Below are positions 6,086 to 26,019 of a stretch of 32,000 nt of DNA, in pieces. A model generated the notes under the pieces. The model saw nothing but the letters and a program-made list of their open reading frames with translations, ran no database searches and had not been told where the DNA came from. The DNA comes from Anaeroplasma sp. (GTDB lineage: Bacteria > Bacillota_I > Bacilli_A > Acholeplasmatales > Anaeroplasmataceae). The stretch covers positions 865 to 32,864 of the forward strand of contig JBJEFS010000119.1 of NCBI GenBank assembly GCA_051874325.1, given 5' to 3'. Both the position numbers and the translations under genes were made by a program. Position 1 is the stretch's first letter. Each line of letters starts with the position of its first letter.

Positions 6086-6114
6086 TTGACAGGAATAGCA
6101 AAAAAAATTATAAT
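6086..6114 (+). promoter_or_regulatory. consensus sigma-A promoter of the LysR gene
   Basis: TTGACA (6086-6091), N17, TATAAT (6109-6114). GGAGGG RBS and ATG at 6146 lie downstream. Confidence 0.65.
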
Positions 6115-6145
6115 TAAATTGTATATTGAAAATGGAGGGTTATTT

Positions 6146-7043
6146 ATGGAATTAAGAGTTTTGAGATATTTTTTAGCAGTTGCAAGGGAACAATCCATAA
6201 CAGGTGCTGCTGAAAGTTTACATGTAACACAACCCACTCTTTCAAAACAATTAATGGATTTGGAAGATGAACTTGGAAAAAAATTATTTATTCGTGGGAA
6301 TAGAAAAATCACTCTTACTGAGGATGGAGTTTATTTAAGGAAAAGAGCTCAAGAAATAATAGATTTAACTGATAAAACTGAAGCTGAATTTCATTCTTCA
6401 GATGAAATAATAACTGGAGATATTTATATAGGTGCTGGTGAAACAGAAAGTATGAGAATTGTCGTTAAAGTAATTACAAAATTACAAGCAAAATATCCTC
6501 GGAATACACTTTCATTTTTTAAGTGGTAATGCAGATTCAGTTATGGAAAGATTAGATAAAGGACTTCTTGATTTTGGTGTATTAATAGAACCTTCTGATA
6601 TAAAAAAATTGGATTGTTTATCGATTCCTTATACTGATAATATGGGATTATTGATGAGAAAAGATTCTCCTTTAGCAAAACAGAATTATATTTTACCAAA
6701 GGATTTAATTGATATTCCTATAATTGTTCCTGCTTCTATTGTTAATTATAATAGTTTTTTTAAATGGATTGGATCTGATTTTGAAAAATTAAATATTATT
6801 GCAACTTGTAATTTGATTTATAATCCTTCTTTATTAGTAGAAGAAGGTAATGCCTATGCGATTTGTATTGATAATCTAATTAATACTACTGGAGATAGTA
6901 ATCTATGTTTTAGACCTTTTACTCCTAGTGTTAATCTTTCTTCTGTAATTGTATGGAAGAAATATCAAGTTTTTTCCAAGGCTTCTCAAAAATTTTTAGA
7001 TGAGTTAAAAAAAGAATTTAAAAACAATAAAGATGCTTTTTAA
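6146..7043 (+). pseudogene. LysR-family transcriptional regulator, interrupted by a 1-nt frameshift
   Basis: MELRVLRYFLAVAREQSITGAAESLHVTQPTLSKQL is a LysR HTH. The frame ends at 6529 (KYPRNTLSFFKW*). Deleting one C near 6497-6500 gives KYPGIHFHFLSGNADSVMERLDKGLLDFGVLIEP, continuous with ORF 6543..7043. Confidence 0.8.
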
Positions 7044-11607: not shown

Positions 11608-12117
11608 TTATTCAAATAATATTCTTTTTATTTTCTCCAAAATACTACCATTTTTCTCTTCTATTAGCTTTTGCTGCAATAATTCTTGTTTTTCTTTCAA
11701 TATAGTTCTTTTAGCACAAATAATTTTATATGCAAGTTCTGCTCCATTTATTTTAGGATATTTATACAAACAATCTGAAATATTTTTATATCTATAACAT
11801 AAACCTGGATCTGGAGTAAATGATACGACTATAAATTTTGGGCTTTCTTTCTTCTCACTATAATTTTTTATTATATCAAGTCCTGTAAATTGATGATTTC
11901 TCATTAAATCAGTAATTACAACATCAGGCTTTAACTCCTCTATCATTCTAATCTCTTCATCATCATTATTGGCAATTCCAAGTATTTTTATTTGGTTGTA
12001 CTCGCTTAAAATTTTTTTGATTTCTTCACATGTTTTTATTTCATCATCTGCAATTATAATATTTATTTCATTTATCTTTACATCATTATCAGTTTGTTTT
12101 TCTATCTCCTCTTTCAT
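11608..12117 (-). CDS. receiver-domain-only (CheY-like) response regulator with a C-terminal helical tail
   Basis: IIIADDE acidic pair, PDVVITDL phospho-acceptor context, FIVVSF, then a K-x-P region. No output domain. AGGAG RBS 7 nt upstream. Confidence 0.6.
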   Translation of the reverse strand: MKEEIEKQTDNDVKINEINIIIADDEIKTCEEIKKILSEYNQIKILGIANNDDEEIRMIEELKPDVVITDLMRNHQFTGLDIIKNYSEKKESPKFIVVSFTPDPGLCYRYKNISDCLYKYPKINGAELAYKIICAKRTILKEKQELLQQKLIEEKNGSILEKIKRILFE

Positions 12118-12478: not shown

Positions 12479-12516
12479 AACAAATTTCTATTACTATGTA
12501 GTAGTAATTTGTTTTT
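12477..12516. terminator. bidirectional terminator between the convergent XRE and AbrB-like genes
   Basis: aaaacaaatt (12477-12486) pairs with aatttgtttt (12506-12515), with further inner pairing and T-runs on both strands. Confidence 0.55.
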
Positions 12517-12931
12517 ATTTAATTTTTATTAAAATAATCATATTATCTTTTATGCATATTTTCATTTTATCATTTTCCATTATATTTAATTCTTTCCTTA
12601 ATTCTATTGGAATAATTACTCTCCCTAATTCATCAATAGTCCTTAAAGAATGATCTTTATTATAACTTTTATCAATATTAGTCTTAATTCTCTTAACTTT
12701 AATATCAAGTTCTATTTCATTATTAATAATAGCTTTTACTTTTTCAATTATATCTTTGCGTATATCTACCTTAATTTTTTTTAATATAATATTATTTCCA
12801 CTTCTATATATTTCTAATTTATCTCCAGCATTAATTTTTAATTCTTTTCTTTTGACTAATGGTATTACAATTTGACCTAATTCACTAATTGTTCTAATTT
12901 CATTTTTTCTTCGTACTTTTAAATTCTCCAT
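12515..12931 (-). CDS. protein with two tandem AbrB/SpoVT-type swapped-hairpin DNA-binding domains
   Basis: RTISELGQIVIPLVKRKELKINAGDKLEIYRSGNNIILKK and RTIDELGRVIIPIELRKELNIMENDKMKICIKDNMIILIK both match the AbrB N-domain (VDELGRVVIPIELRRTLGI...). Confidence 0.85.
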   Translation of the reverse strand: MENLKVRRKNEIRTISELGQIVIPLVKRKELKINAGDKLEIYRSGNNIILKKIKVDIRKDIIEKVKAIINNEIELDIKVKRIKTNIDKSYNKDHSLRTIDELGRVIIPIELRKELNIMENDKMKICIKDNMIILIKIK

Positions 12932-13255: not shown

Positions 13256-13347
13256 TTTACAGTTATATCAAGTTTAAAAAATTTTTCGACTTTTTTCTAC
13301 AATTTTAGCAAAAAAAGAAACTAGAATTTCTCTAGTTTCCATTATTT

Positions 13348-13683
13348 CTAACTATTTAAAGCATTATATATTGCTATATTTGTTAGTTTATATATTGATA
13401 ATCCGTATTTATTTTTCAGTTCTTCCAACTTGTTATATAAGGTTTCTCTTATTGCAAAGTTATGTGCCTCAACTATTTCATTGTCAGATCTTTCATATAG
13501 TTTTACATTTTCAGTATTTATCATTTCTATAATTGCTGCATTAACTAATTTGTTTATTGATGCATCATAAATTTCTGCTAGTTCTGTAAGTTTTTCATAT
13601 AATGAGTTATCTATTTCAATTCTTCTTTTTAAAAGATTATCTTTTTTTAGAAAGTATTTATCAAAAGTATTCAATTTAACCAC
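13348..13683 (-). CDS. protein with two tandem ribbon-helix-helix (CopG/Arc-like) modules
   Basis: RRIEIDNSLYEKLTELAEIYDASINKLVNAAIIEMI and HNFAIRETLYNKLEELKNKYGLSIYKLTNIAIYNAL each show a strand-helix-helix pattern. The start is uncertain: GTG at 13683, or TTG at 13674 behind a GAGGTG RBS. Confidence 0.65.
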   Translation of the reverse strand: MVKLNTFDKYFLKKDNLLKRRIEIDNSLYEKLTELAEIYDASINKLVNAAIIEMINTENVKLYERSDNEIVEAHNFAIRETLYNKLEELKNKYGLSIYKLTNIAIYNALNS

Positions 13684-13733
13684 CTCGCAATACTATTATA
13701 ATGTCCTTTTTTCTGTATTTTAATTCCTGCGTG

Positions 13734-13769: not shown

Positions 13770-13976
13770 TTAGTTTTTTAACCCAAGTCCTAATAGTTGT
13801 AATTCTGTTTCAATCTTCTTTATATCAAATTGTACAATTTCTAATTTTCTTAAATCACTTTTATTTTTTTTGCATAATAGTCCAATAGTTTTTATATTAT
13901 TATCTTTTAAAGTTTTTATTGTATTATCACTTATATCTAATCTATCAATACTTTGGTTATTTAATTTATCATCCAT
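13770..13976 (-). CDS. stand-alone RNA polymerase alpha-subunit C-terminal-domain (alpha-CTD, HhH)-like protein
   Basis: SIDRLDISDNTIKTLKDNNIKTIGLLCKKNKSDLRKLEIVQFDIKKIETELQLLGLGLK aligns by eye with E. coli RpoA [60 protein letters not shown]. Confidence 0.7.
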   Translation of the reverse strand: MDDKLNNQSIDRLDISDNTIKTLKDNNIKTIGLLCKKNKSDLRKLEIVQFDIKKIETELQLLGLGLKN

Positions 13977-13991
13977 TTTTTACATCCTTTT

Positions 13992-14258
13992 TTAATCCTT
14001 TATCGCTATCATTAGTTCATTTGATTCTACTTTTCTTTTTGCATTTTGATATTCAAATTCAGCATTTGTAAAGTAAACTCTATATCCTTTGTTTTCAAAA
14101 TAATCTCTACTTACCCTCAATACTTCATCTATTTCTTTTTCCGTTAATCCACTTTTCACTTTTAGTTCAAAATAGGAATATCTAATATAATTTTCATTTT
14201 CATTTTCTTTTTGATTTATAAAATTTATTGTAAAAATTTTTAGTTCTTTGTCTGTCAT
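13992..14258 (-). CDS. hypothetical protein
   Basis: The ATG at 14258 (MTDKELK...) has a GGGAG RBS 8 nt upstream. The GTG at 14279 in the track is less likely. No recognisable domain. Confidence 0.5.
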   Translation of the reverse strand: MTDKELKIFTINFINQKENENENYIRYSYFELKVKSGLTEKEIDEVLRVSRDYFENKGYRVYFTNAEFEYQNAKRKVESNELMIAIKD

Positions 14259-14286: not shown

Positions 14287-14316
14287 ATTATATCATATTT
14301 TTATTTTTTTGTCTAA
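14287..14316 (-). promoter_or_regulatory. candidate promoter for the 13992-14258 / alpha-CTD gene pair
   Basis: Minus strand reads TTAGAC-N18-TATAAT. Confidence 0.4.
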
Positions 14317-14327
14317 AAAATAATTTT

Positions 14328-14726
14328 TTAATGTAAAATTTCTATAATTTCTTTTATAGGTATTTCTGTTTTATCATCTAATACAAGTAATTGATTATAT
14401 TCATCTATCTTTTTTAAGTTACCGACTTTAGTTAGATATTCTCCTCCAGATTTTCTTATATCTGGCACAAAATATGTAACTATAACTTTAGGTTTATTTG
14501 AAATATTATTTTGTATTTTTTTTAATTTATTATCTAATTTTATTTTTTCCTCATCATCAAGTTCAATTCTATCTTCAGTTATTCTTGCTGTTTCTTTTAT
14601 GGCATCTCCATATCCTGTAAGTGCGGCAAAAGGTGCAAATTGAGCAGCTCTTTGTTCCATACTTAATCTTTGATGCTTCGTTGATACATGATGAGGTAAA
14701 TTTATAATATCATCATATTTTTCCAT
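14328..14726 (-). CDS. YolD-like protein (Y-family polymerase accessory)
   Basis: LSMEQRAAQFAPFAALTGY is the YolD-like signature. Lies immediately downstream of the Y-family polymerase gene. Confidence 0.8.
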   Translation of the reverse strand: MEKYDDIINLPHHVSTKHQRLSMEQRAAQFAPFAALTGYGDAIKETARITEDRIELDDEEKIKLDNKLKKIQNNISNKPKVIVTYFVPDIRKSGGEYLTKVGNLKKIDEYNQLLVLDDKTEIPIKEIIEILH

Positions 14727-14735
14727 ACTTCTCTC

Positions 14736-16235
14736 CTATTCTTTATGACCACCAATTTGAGAATTTCTTTCTATTGTCGTAGCACCTTCTTCTAGATTCA
14801 TTCCTTTTAAAATTGCATTTTTCCCAAATTTCTTTTTTATGTATATAATTGCATGTTGTAAATTATTTTCATTCTTTCTTTTTTGGTTTTCTTTTGCTTT
14901 TTCTTGTTCTTGTTTTTTATAATCAATAAATAGACTGATTTGTTCTTCTTGCTTTTTATTTTCAATTTCTGATTCATTTACTACATTATTAGCAACAACA
15001 TTTATTCTTCTAATTAATAAATTTCTATTTATAATCCTATCATATAATTCTTCTATTGCTTCCATTATAACTTTTGTAGAAGATGTATGTTCCTTTAAGT
15101 TAATTGTTCCATGTGCATGTTTGGGGATTTCTCTACCATACCTATCAGTTGTAATTTCTCCATTATAAGAATCTCTTATTTCTGAATTAGTCAAATTATA
15201 TATATCATATCCTATTGTTAATACAAGTTGATTTGTAACCAAATGTTTTTCTACTAAATCAAGTACAAGTAGGTCTGTCATTTCTTTTACAATAAGTTTT
15301 GTTTGCTCATAATTATAAGGGCAATGTAACACTTGTCCTGAACTCAAACTATTTGTAGCTGGTTTAAATGATTTTACATCTTTCATAGTACATGGTTCAT
15401 ATCCCCAACTATGATCTATTAAAAATTCAGCATTAACTCCAAATAATTTATACAATAATTCTTCATTTTTTACAGAACATCTTGCTACATCTCCCATTGT
15501 AAACATATTATGAGCTTCAAGTTTTTTTGCATACCCTTTTCCTACTCTCCAAAAGTCAGTAATAGGTTTATGATTCCATAATAATTTTCTATAACTTATT
15601 TCATCAAGCTCTGCAATTCTTACTCCATTTTCATTTGCTTTAACATGTTTAGCTTCTATATCCATTGCAATTTTTGCTAAATACATATTTGTTCCAATTC
15701 CACCTGTAGCTGTTATTCCTGTTGTTTTAAAAACATCTTGTATCATTGTTGTAACTAATTGTTTTGGTGTCATTTTAAGTGTTTTAAGGTACTTCGTTAT
15801 ATCACAAAAAACTTCATCAATAGAATAAGCATAAATATCTTCTGGAGCAATATATTTTAAATATACATTATATATTTGTGTACTATATTTCATATAAAGA
15901 GACATTCTTGGAGTAGCTGCAATATAGTCAAGTTCTAAACTAGGATTATTTTGTAATTCAATATTATCAAAGGATTTTCCTTCAAGTTTATGATGAGGTG
16001 CTTTATATCTTCTTTGAAAATTTATATCTTTTACTTTTTGAACAACTTCAAATAATCTTGCTCTTCCAGGTATTCCGTATTGTTTCAATGAAGGACTAAC
16101 TGCAAGACATATTGTTTTTTCTGTTCTTGCTTTATCTGCTACAACTAAATTTGTTTGTAAGGGATTTAGTTTTCTCTCTATACATTCTACAGAAGCATAA
16201 AAACTTTTTAAATCTATGCAACAATATATACTCAT
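14736..16235 (-). CDS. Y-family (UmuC/ImpB/UvrX-like) translesion DNA polymerase
   Basis: MSIYCCIDLKSFYASVECIERKLNP...SIDEVFCDIT...GIGTNMYLAKIA. GGAGG RBS. Confidence 0.9.
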   Translation of the reverse strand: MSIYCCIDLKSFYASVECIERKLNPLQTNLVVADKARTEKTICLAVSPSLKQYGIPGRARLFEVVQKVKDINFQRRYKAPHHKLEGKSFDNIELQNNPSLELDYIAATPRMSLYMKYSTQIYNVYLKYIAPEDIYAYSIDEVFCDITKYLKTLKMTPKQLVTTMIQDVFKTTGITATGGIGTNMYLAKIAMDIEAKHVKANENGVRIAELDEISYRKLLWNHKPITDFWRVGKGYAKKLEAHNMFTMGDVARCSVKNEELLYKLFGVNAEFLIDHSWGYEPCTMKDVKSFKPATNSLSSGQVLHCPYNYEQTKLIVKEMTDLLVLDLVEKHLVTNQLVLTIGYDIYNLTNSEIRDSYNGEITTDRYGREIPKHAHGTINLKEHTSSTKVIMEAIEELYDRIINRNLLIRRINVVANNVVNESEIENKKQEEQISLFIDYKKQEQEKAKENQKRKNENNLQHAIIYIKKKFGKNAILKGMNLEEGATTIERNSQIGGHKE

Positions 16236-16312: not shown

Positions 16313-16368
16313 AATAAAAAAATAATAATACCAAGCAAAGTATTTTAACTTTACCTGGTATTATTATT
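16313..16368 (-). terminator. strong rho-independent terminator ending the T4SS operon
   Basis: 13-bp stem aataataatacca (16321-16333) / tggtattattatt (16356-16368), followed on the minus strand by TTTTTATTT. Confidence 0.7.
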
Positions 16369-23076: not shown

Positions 23077-23652
23077 TTAAGCACCTCCGTTCTTATAATC
23101 TTCTATACTAATGTCGCTCTCGATTTCATCTCCCCAAGAATCCCAACCTTGCACCTTTTTTCGTGCAAAAAGTTCTATTCTTGGTAAATCGCCAACGAGT
23201 TCTACAATTTTTTCTCTAACAATATCTGGTTTCTTACTATGTTCTTCTATTGGAGTATCAATAATTTGATGTACTTTTCTGCTTATTCTTTGAATTTTGC
23301 CTTTTGTTGCAATTAAACAAAGCTCTGAATTGGCTCTTGTCCAATAACCCATACCCCAAAACCATGAGTTAGACTTTCTGTTTTTCTTTACCCATGCAAA
23401 ACCGCATGTTTTATAAGTAAATCCCCATGCTTCAATGACTTTTATTGCTTCTTTTAAGCATGGATAAGTAATCCAGATAAACAAAATACAATTTTCATCT
23501 GAAATATAATTTATAAACTCTTTTAAATTGATAATGTCATCAATGCTCATTGTCTTATAATGGCTTTCTGCACTCCTACCACTACCTTTTTTAGACCATA
23601 CTTTATATTGCCAGGGGGGATCTGCATATATGATTTGATATTTTTTTGCCAT
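23077..23652 (-). CDS. MT-A70 family N6-adenine DNA methyltransferase (orphan)
   Basis: YQIIYADPPWQY is the DPPW catalytic motif. 191 aa. No adjacent nuclease ORF. Confidence 0.85.
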   Translation of the reverse strand: MAKKYQIIYADPPWQYKVWSKKGSGRSAESHYKTMSIDDIINLKEFINYISDENCILFIWITYPCLKEAIKVIEAWGFTYKTCGFAWVKKNRKSNSWFWGMGYWTRANSELCLIATKGKIQRISRKVHQIIDTPIEEHSKKPDIVREKIVELVGDLPRIELFARKKVQGWDSWGDEIESDISIEDYKNGGA

Positions 23653-24165: not shown

Positions 24166-26019
24166 CTAGATATTGTTAGCAATGTCAATATCTTCTTTGT
24201 ACATATTCTCAATTTCTTCATCTGATAATAATTCAATACCAGACTCTTTTGTTTCTAAATCTATAATATCTTTTGTATCAATTTGTATATCATCTAAATT
24301 AAATGATATTGTTCCTATCGAATTCTCTGTTCCGCCATGTAAATATGGTTTTACAGCCTTATTTCCAATAGGTGTGTATATACTATTAAAATGTTCTTTT
24401 AGATTAAATTTAAAATCTTTTACAGGTCTTTCTCCTCTAATGAATAATAAAGCATAGTTATTATCTAACATTCTAACCTCATCTGGAGTCAATAGTTCTC
24501 TTCCAGCCATCTGGTCATTTTTAGAATAATTACCATGTGAACCATAGCTCCTACCATAGGTGTTGGTATCTATTGTTTCTTTGCCTAAAAGTTCTGATAC
24601 ATACTTGTGCGTACTTTGTTCGTTTCCGACCGCAAGTATAAAAATTCATCACAATTTCCAACAATGCTCTCCCATTGTTTCTCAAACAATGCTTTAAGTT
24701 GTGCTAGGTTTTGTAAAATGATACTTACAGAAACTTCTCTTGATCTCATTACAGACAATATTTTATCAAAATCATCTGGTAAGCTAACATTCGCAAATTC
24801 ATCCATCACAAAATGTACATGAACTGGTAAACTCCCATTATATTTATAGTCTGCTAGATAAAATAATTGCTGAAATAGTTGTGTATAAAGTATGCTTACA
24901 AGAAAATTAAATGATGTATCATTGTCTGGTATTATCGCAAATAATGCTACTTTCTTTTCCCCTAAACTTGGTAAATCCAATTCATCTGTTTGTGTTAGCT
25001 GTGCCATACTTTCTAAATTAAATTTTTCAAGTCTTGATGCTAATGTTACTTGAATAGATTTTAATGTTTTAGCTGAGCCAGAATGATATGCTCTATAATA
25101 TTTTAGTGCTATATGTTCTGGGTTTTTTGTTTCTAATCTATTAAAAAGCATATCAAGTGGACTTACATAGTCATCATCATCTTCTTTTACATCTCCAGCT
25201 CTTAACAATTCCATAACCATAACAAAGTTTTGTTCTTCCTCTGGAGCTTCGTATTTCAAATAAAATATTAGTGCTAAAAGTAACATACTTGCAGCAGTAT
25301 CCCAAAAGGGATCGTTTGTTGTGCTTCCTTTTGGAGTAGTAGATTTAAACAAGTTAGTAGATAGCTTTTGAACATCATTATCAGTTTTTATATATACAAA
25401 TGGATTATAACAATGTGATTTTTCCATATTGATTAAATCTAATATTCTAACTTCATATCCGTTCTTTTTCTAGTAGATAACCTGTATCTCTAACGATTTC
25501 CCCTTTAGGATCTAGTATAACATAAGAACTTGTGCATTGCATAACATTTGGTTTGCAATAACTAAATGTTTTACCAGCACCAGAACCACCTATTACTAGA
25601 ACATTGACATTTCTTCTATGCTTTTTTCCATTTAATCCTACAGAAACATTTTTAGTTAGTATCTTATTATAATTATTAGGTTGCTTATATTTTTTATTTA
25701 GTTCTTTAGCTTCGCCCCATTTAGCTGAACCATTTTCCTCTCTCCTCCTGTAATTTTTTCTTGTAGATTCATATACTAAAATAACTAAAATATAAATTAG
25801 CCAAAAAATAAGAATAGTTTTTATACTATTCTCTGACCATATTATATTAAATGGATTTGAAATGGCTATACTACCATTTTTAATTATTTCTATTATTCCA
25901 CCTTTAGTATATGGTGCTAAAAGGAGAGCTAACCAAGTAATCGGTACAATACCAATTATATATAAGGCTCTAGTAATTTTCTTTTCATCTTCCCTCACGA
26001 ATATACTTCCCTTTTGCAT
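24166..26019 (-). pseudogene. VirD4/TraG-type coupling protein (CD1115 type), split into three ORFs by two frameshifts
   Basis: ORFs 25453..26019 (TMs plus Walker A VLVIGGSGAGKT), 24585..25427 (HVHFVMDEFAN) and 24166..24510 (GRELLTPDEVRML) join into one roughly 615-aa T4CP once frames are shifted near 25465 and near 24630. Confidence 0.85.

Follow-up and report, generated by a model that had tools for sequence, protein, structure and literature searches.

What is a free-standing copy of an RNA polymerase domain doing on a conjugative element? The question is raised by a protein of 68 residues (MDDKLNNQSIDRLDISDNTIKTLKDNNIKTIGLLCKKNKSDLRKLEIVQFDIKKIETELQLLGLGLKN, as given by the list of open reading frames and its translation) encoded in the window, the 32,000-nucleotide stretch of Anaeroplasma DNA that was analysed here. 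Activators and UP elements in bacteria recruit RNA polymerase chiefly by docking on the domain that this protein resembles, the alpha-subunit C-terminal domain (alpha-CTD).

Several searches identify the 68-residue protein as a diverged single-domain paralogue of the alpha-subunit C-terminal domain. It matches Pfam PF03118 (E 1.4e-5) with 25.2 bits, above the gathering threshold of 23.8, and all 14 of the 14 close family members match the same model individually, the best at 5.6e-8. The NCBIfam rpoA models align their C-terminal ends with residues 3-67. TIGR02027, the RpoA equivalog, gives 23.8 bits against a cutoff of 227.8 with model positions 231-296 alone matched, so that the protein is not a full-length RpoA. 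When the PDB was searched by phmmer with the 68-residue query, only RpoA alpha-CTD chains were returned, the B. subtilis chains of Spx complexes being matched over the full length; a profile built from 14 family members also recovered RpoA chains only (best 3e-6). Identity to the alpha-CTDs of Firmicutes, Proteobacteria and Actinobacteria is 24-30%. The AlphaFold2 model, calculated template-free with the family alignment as sole input (pLDDT 94, pTM 0.80), superimposes on the B. subtilis alpha-CTD (1z3e_B) with an rmsd of 1.6 Å over 67 residues (TM 0.85/0.86), and with this model as the Foldseek query the first ~41 PDB matches are all alpha-CTDs. A resemblance to alpha-CTD along the whole length had been proposed in a sequence-only reading of this DNA, and it is borne out by the PF03118 match, the PDB profile matches and the superposition.

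The same reading had named a merely generic helix-hairpin-helix (HhH) match as the result that would count against it; the Pfam and structural comparisons are both significant, and that objection fails. We likewise reject a generic (HhH)2 DNA-binding protein of the ComEA, RuvA or UvrC type, since sequence and profile searches recover alpha-CTDs only and alpha-CTDs are the top structure matches. The second hairpin has no glycine at the canonical HhH position. No alpha-NTD was found in the 68-residue protein or in the gene upstream of it, which encodes the unrelated p88, and the earlier expectation that the protein cannot assemble into RNA polymerase through an alpha-NTD therefore stands. The 32,000 nucleotides of the window include no host rpoA gene. 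The protein has a pI of 8.8 and a net charge of +2.

The family to which the gene belongs is large. When 1.84 billion representatives were searched exhaustively with HMMER, at least 276 clusters (formed at 50% identity) reached E<=1e-3, and 79 reached E<=1e-10. Most members are 65-75 residues long (61-80 residues in 93 of the best 150 clusters), and the close homologues are all stand-alone proteins of 59-73 residues. When the window gene is compared in turn with 15 homologues, dN/dS ranges from 0.10 to 0.66 and is mostly below 0.4. We conclude that this is a real gene under purifying selection. Conservation as a stand-alone gene, the dN/dS values and a one-residue deletion common to the whole family rule out an rpoA pseudogene or fragment, which had been the other outcome foreseen as a refutation. 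A mobile-element decoy or adaptor of this kind had also been called unusual, a word that should be moderated given the number of clusters and the existence of an NCBI name for the protein.

The genomic context was surveyed at the loci of close homologues and by a scan of 185,579 species-representative genomes. In both, every carrier of the alpha-CTD-like gene is a MAG of uncultured gut Clostridia, Bacilli or 'Tenericutes', and wherever the flank extends that far the gene lies downstream of VirB4, sortase and CHAP genes. The family is located in the accessory and regulatory part of Firmicute-type integrative conjugative elements (ICEs). Searches by tblastn of the PLSDB plasmids and the INPHARED phages gave no match for either the alpha-CTD-like protein or p88, PHROG and PADLOC contain no family for the alpha-CTD-like protein, and IMG/VR gave one match among 2.9 million contigs, in ICE-like surroundings. 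The gene is abundant in metagenomes of human and animal guts, one variant being present on 351 contigs. In the most abundant lineage (L013-L015, 329-351 contigs), a resistance-carrying ICE found widely in the gut, the genes immediately upstream of p88 are cargo and encode an rRNA adenine dimethylase (Erm-like, RrnaAD) and an ABC transporter; PemK and an integrase lie farther downstream.

In the window, the location on a conjugative element that had been read from the sequence is confirmed by a Firmicute-type conjugation module (Table 1). It includes genes for DUF6664, a DUF3991/Toprim primase-like protein, a NikA/MobC-like protein, a MobA/VirD2 relaxase, DUF3801, a T4 coupling protein, pilin-like proteins, an MT-A70 methylase, PrgI, a VirB4-like ATPase, a sortase and a CHAP hydrolase. 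The coupling protein (T4SS-DNA_transf/TraG-D_C) is divided between three consecutive open reading frames of 188, 280 and 114 residues in different frames; in L001 and L003 it is likewise fragmented, beside a group II intron-type reverse transcriptase. Decay of the element, frameshift errors made in assembling the MAG or a gene that is truly in pieces could each account for this. The MT-A70 adenine methyltransferase gene lies inside the T4SS operon, between VirB6-like and pilin-like genes, and may have an anti-restriction role. Beyond the response regulator at the other end come cargo genes for redox and detoxification functions, accompanied by MerR and LysR regulators. One LysR regulator is split into an HTH_1 reading frame of 147 residues and a LysR_substrate reading frame of 166 residues, 13 nt apart; a frameshift in a pseudogene or a mistake in assembly is the probable cause. 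Scanning the window for Rfam families and for tRNAs gave no matches.

Table 1. Positions, within the window, of the predicted transcription unit and of the features around it.
Feature	Position	Strand	Remarks
Firmicute-type conjugation module	~31650 down to 16373	-	
T4 coupling protein, three reading frames	24169-26019	-	
MT-A70 adenine methyltransferase	23077-23652	-	inside T4SS operon
Strong terminator of T4SS operon	16321-16368		precedes Y-family polymerase region
Y-family (ImpB/MucB/SamB) polymerase and overlapping 132-aa gene	14328-16235	-	interval between T4SS terminator and p88 promoter
Sigma-A-type promoter-like site heading the unit	14287..14315	-	TAGACA, 17 nt, extended -10 TGaTATAAT
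p88, first cistron, 88 aa	13992..14258	-	ATG at 14258, GGGAG ribosome-binding site
Stand-alone alpha-CTD-like gene, 68 aa, second cistron	13770..13976	-	15 nt past p88 stop
Weaker promoter-like site	13695..13723	-	TTAAAA, 17 nt, TATAAT; scan 10/12; in 95-nt spacer before RHH gene
Tandem ribbon-helix-helix (RHH; Arc-like) protein, ~108 aa	13348..13674	-	TTG start after GAGGTGG
Intrinsic-terminator-like hairpin closing the unit	13316..13340	-	11-pair stem then TTTTTTT
Two tandem AbrB/SpoVT (MazE_antitoxin) domains in a 138-aa chain	12515-12931	-	just downstream of RHH gene
Single-domain response regulator	11608-12117		downstream of unit
Split LysR regulator, two reading frames	6086-7043	+	

The alpha-CTD-like gene is predicted to be the second cistron of a small unit that has p88 as its first and is headed by a conserved, putative sigma-A-type promoter with an extended -10 element. 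This operon setting, with p88 on the upstream side and the RHH gene on the downstream side, had gone unremarked in the earlier reading. In a consensus scan the promoter-like site scores 11/12 with the TG, and the layout TAAGACA...TGATATAAT...GGAAGTG...ATG upstream of p88 is kept in most related loci, whatever precedes it. Homologues of p88 begin MTEKELK, supporting the start assigned to this gene, and the alpha-CTD-like gene has its own ribosome-binding site (AAGGA, 7 nt 5' of the ATG) inside the short spacer that follows p88. The weaker promoter-like site farther along may be a chance occurrence in AT-rich DNA. For the RHH gene the list of open reading frames offers an alternative start, a GTG at 13683; its product matches Arc-like repressor families of PHROG (8.8e-6 and 5.9e-5). 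The tandem RHH and tandem AbrB proteins are two 'single-chain dimer' DNA-binding proteins encoded in succession. Upstream of the unit, the 132-residue protein whose gene overlaps that of the Y-family polymerase is YolD-like by eye and has no Pfam match; the same pair of genes directly precedes the alpha-CTD-like gene in L024, where p88 is absent.

A residue-level comparison was made by aligning E. coli RpoA (NC_000913) and the B. subtilis and M. smegmatis CTDs with 82 family members in MAFFT. In alpha-CTD, R265 and N294 enter the minor groove and K291 and K298 contact phosphates (PMC7822876). In the window protein, R265 of E. coli corresponds with N18 (Arg in 3 of 82 family members), N268 with K21 (mixed in the 82), N294 with E46 (Gly in 38/82), G296 with V48 (Gly in none of the 82), K297 with Q49 (Gln in 33/82), K298 with F50 (Lys in 16/82) and S299 with D51 (Glu or Asp in 66/82). 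The residue equivalent to P293 is deleted in the window protein and in 82/82, and the second hairpin is one residue shorter than that of alpha-CTD throughout the family. None of the residues R265, N294, G296, K298 and S299 that make up the UP-element-reading set is present in the window protein. The earlier reading was right that these contacts are replaced, and the replacement extends to the whole family rather than to this copy alone; its assignment of Gln and Phe to K298 and S299 was one position off. Because the residues that read the minor groove and backbone of UP elements are all replaced family-wide, in part by acidic ones, and because the hairpin is shorter, these proteins probably do not bind DNA in the manner of alpha-CTD, and canonical UP-element reading is very unlikely.

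Conservation across the 82-member alignment extends to the hydrophobic core and to the G-L-x-L motif at the C-terminus, and the first hairpin (I-x-T-I/L-G) is kept in 46/82. The protein surface shows charge reversals specific to the family, D259 being replaced by Arg in 49/82 and E286 by Lys or Arg in 68/82. Basic residues are also found at the positions of L290 (67/82), K271 (48/82) and, as Lys, E302 (42/82). The position of B. subtilis Y263, a residue reportedly critical for Spx binding, is occupied by Ile, Leu, Thr or Val. Since the surfaces that contact sigma region 4 and CAP in E. coli are charge-reversed and Y263 is replaced, the protein is unlikely simply to mimic the surfaces by which alpha-CTD is known to contact sigma-4, CAP or Spx. 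A decoy directed at Spx, in particular, was considered and judged unlikely on account of the aliphatic Y263 equivalent, and the Spx-type contact surface that had been suggested to survive is thus unlikely to be retained as such.

The RpoA alpha-CTDs (PF03118; 1z3e_B, 3k4g, 1lb2) are the closest known system, and with them the family shares the fold and homology over the whole domain, including the core and the G-L-x-L motif. In contrast to RpoA, the window protein is untethered from any alpha-NTD and lacks R265, N294, G296, K298 and S299, the family has D259 and E286 charge-reversed, an aliphatic residue for Y263 and the shorter second hairpin, and the gene is carried by a mobile element, whereas rpoA sits in an operon with ribosomal-protein genes. 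The same family profile also recovers multi-domain proteins. Two of these, P0084 (263 residues) and P0141 (279 residues), are non-RpoA proteins with a Cys-rich, Zn-ribbon-like N-terminus and two canonical alpha-CTD copies, and five others, P0047 (736 residues), P0074 (900), P0147 (1031), P0066 (491) and P0113 (277), contain 3-9 tandem alpha-CTD-like repeats. Unlike the 68-residue family, the multi-domain proteins keep the DNA-contact motifs L-S-V-R-x-x-N-C-L and N-L-G-K/R-K-S in many of their repeats.

A precedent for HhH-type modules that have given up DNA binding and make protein contacts only is provided by NusA, whose acidic repeats AR1 and AR2 have an (HhH)2 architecture and bind lambda N as well as alpha-CTD. 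These repeats are part of a large host protein, whereas the 68-residue protein stands alone, and NusA gave no sequence or structure match in the PDB search with the family profile or in the Foldseek search. The TraR protein of the F plasmid (PMC6970531), an RNA polymerase-directed regulator, is likewise a small protein of a conjugative element, and the likeness lies in a plausible action on the transcription machinery rather than on DNA. TraR has an unrelated, DksA-like fold and a demonstrated mechanism through the RNA polymerase secondary channel; for the 68-residue protein an action on transcription is a proposal only.

The first cistron of the unit, p88, forms a family of more than 456 clusters at 90% identity, all labelled 'hypothetical', and its sequence matches nothing in Pfam, PHROG, PADLOC or the PDB. 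Its AlphaFold2 model (pLDDT 96.6) has the topology a1-b1-a2-a3-b2-b3-b4-b5, and its structural neighbours are insignificant and loosely winged-helix-like (CodY-C, CtsR, RepE and phage 'transcriptional regulator' proteins; TM 0.4-0.6). The protein is mildly acidic (pI 5.3), as against the basic alpha-CTD-like protein. In 17 of the 21 species-level loci with a full-length alpha-CTD-like gene, that gene is directly preceded by p88 on the same strand, 9-24 nt away; loci with the alpha-CTD-like gene and no p88 are L002/5/6, L021, L024, L033, L038 and L047. The converse does not hold, as a p88-centred scan of metagenome contigs found 68 of 71 evaluable loci without the alpha-CTD-like gene, the genes that follow p88 in these 68 loci belonging to ~27 unrelated families, of which an 85-residue membrane protein is the commonest. 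An obligate complex of the two proteins is therefore rejected, the co-occurrence being 17/21 in one direction and 3/71 in the other. Because most p88 loci carry something else next, p88 is best regarded as a backbone gene bordering a variable region, with the alpha-CTD-like gene as an optional first occupant, and the adjacency of the two may in part come from a fixed site of insertion where that region begins.

Three observations nevertheless argue for more than a positional linkage. The pair has co-diverged to 45-57% identity with the tight spacing retained. At L049 the same slot, 13 nt after p88, is occupied by a 149-residue protein in which a helical N-terminal extension of 79 residues precedes an alpha-CTD-like domain (residues 80-147, E 2.9e-15). 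P0286 (L044/L045, from one study) is a true in-frame fusion of p88 and the alpha-CTD-like protein, one T->C change from the two-gene state. The support that fusion lends to a p88 complex is weak, coming from this single lineage. A candidate second fusion, P0080 (L046:535-1014), was rejected: an in-frame TAG overlaps a GGAGG ribosome-binding site that is followed by a GTG start, and the protein is a gene-calling artefact of a recoded table (TAG=Q) by which translation was carried across the p88 stop, there being two genes under table 11. Other proteins from the same source may share the TAG=Q problem. The second hairpin of the L049 protein (E-I-N-G-V-S) looks more canonical.

The genes downstream are regulatory in character. 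The RHH gene accompanies the alpha-CTD-like gene in 7 of 21 genome loci and in L013-15, L050 and the window, and in none of the 77 loci that have p88 alone. It thus goes with the alpha-CTD-like gene and not with p88, being present solely in loci of the former. The window RHH protein is 81% identical to the product of a 109-residue gene at the same position in L013, and RHH proteins are ~90% conserved beside alpha-CTD-like variants that share only 52% identity. A homologue of the single-domain response regulator of the window is found downstream in 12/23 loci, and HTH and sigma-70-region-4 genes are common nearby in related loci. A different neighbour is seen in L038, L040, L041 and L042, where the alpha-CTD-like gene abuts another 88-residue gene that is GNAT-like by eye (...QGQGIAKKLVE...). 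In L040-L042 the alpha-CTD-like gene ends after ~33 residues, next to chromosomal genes (dUTPase-like, CarD-like), and these look like remnants at an element boundary.

How, then, might the protein act? We tentatively favour, at somewhat less than an even chance, a role as a transcription-regulatory adaptor or decoy that works through protein-protein contacts. An alpha-CTD-shaped surface would be offered to a partner. Candidates within the element are its RHH protein, its single-domain response regulator and p88; another is a host factor that has alpha-CTD as its usual contact. The partner would be held away from RNA polymerase, or coupled to other proteins, and the outcome would be a tuned expression of element or host genes. 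The neighbourhood of regulators (RHH, response regulator, HTH and sigma-like), the loss of the DNA contacts and the retention of the core are consistent with such a role. Against it stand the non-obligate relationship with p88, the possible slot effect, the charge reversal of the sigma-4 and CAP surfaces and the replacement of Y263. A more specific version, in which the proteins are mobile-element mimics of alpha-CTD, DNA-blind and re-charged, that intercept or re-route alpha-CTD-dependent regulators or serve as a surrogate alpha-CTD for the RHH protein or response regulator of the element, we regard as doubtful.

The mild basicity of the protein and the conserved lysines of helix 3 also count against a purely adaptor-like role, in that they leave room for nucleic-acid binding of another kind. 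An HhH protein with a new basic surface might be a small architectural or accessory DNA factor, for instance a co-factor of the RHH repressor at promoters of the element or a participant in conjugative DNA processing. Such a function would fit the pI, the Lys and Arg residues conserved at the E286, L290, E302 and K271 positions, the first hairpin where it is kept, the linkage to the gene of a DNA-binding RHH protein and the location on a DNA-transfer element. The canonical minor-groove and backbone contacts are, however, all lost, position 299 is acidic in most members, the net charge is small and a long distance separates the gene from the end of the element that holds the relaxase and oriT; we consider a DNA-binding function of this kind rather improbable.

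HhH and SAM-like folds commonly serve as protein-protein modules, and the contacts of the protein need not involve transcription: it could be a scaffold unrelated to RNA polymerase, interacting with p88, for example, or with the Y-family polymerase and YolD-like pair. Translational coupling to p88 and the one fusion lineage would agree with this, as would the polymerase and YolD-like genes that precede the unit in the window and the alpha-CTD-like gene in L024. The polymerase pair is missing from most loci, however, p88 and the alpha-CTD-like gene are each dispensable to the other, and the recurrent neighbours are regulators rather than repair or transfer enzymes, making a scaffold of this type unlikely. 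Finally, that the gene is a functionless, decaying rpoA duplicate or capture fragment, or a chance reading frame in AT-rich DNA, is scarcely credible, for its short length and modest single-sequence Pfam score are the only points that suggest so, against conservation of a 65-75-residue stand-alone gene in hundreds of clusters, dN/dS well below 1, a ribosome-binding site of its own, a conserved operon position with no alpha-NTD remnant upstream, 24-30% identity to the alpha-CTDs of three phyla, a family-wide deletion and a confident folded model.

The assignment of the domain is not in itself new. The automatic NCBI name of this exact protein is 'DNA-directed RNA polymerase subunit alpha C-terminal domain-containing protein'; the label 'RNA polymerase alpha subunit' given to one relative by JGI is a mis-annotation. 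Literature searches that covered stand-alone alpha-CTD proteins, PF03118, alpha-CTD decoys and the product name used by NCBI turned up no account of mobile-element paralogues of this kind. New here are how large the family is, its confinement to the ICEs of gut Firmicutes, with no match in PLSDB or INPHARED and one in IMG/VR, the family-wide loss of the DNA contacts and the cassette formed by p88, the alpha-CTD-like gene and the RHH gene.

A free, DNA-blind copy of alpha-CTD on conjugative elements would be well suited to the manipulation of the docking point at which activators meet RNA polymerase. If these proteins act on transcription, they would represent a new type of element-encoded regulator, and would provide a small, easily expressed probe of alpha-CTD-dependent regulation in Firmicutes. 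If they are indeed mimics of alpha-CTD, gut ICEs, some of which carry the alpha-CTD-like gene together with erm-like resistance cargo, would gain a previously unrecognised means of takeover or insulation of transcription in donor or recipient cells. Even otherwise, the analysis defines p88 as a large unannotated family, and the cassette of p88, alpha-CTD-like and RHH genes marks the boundary between backbone and cargo in these elements.
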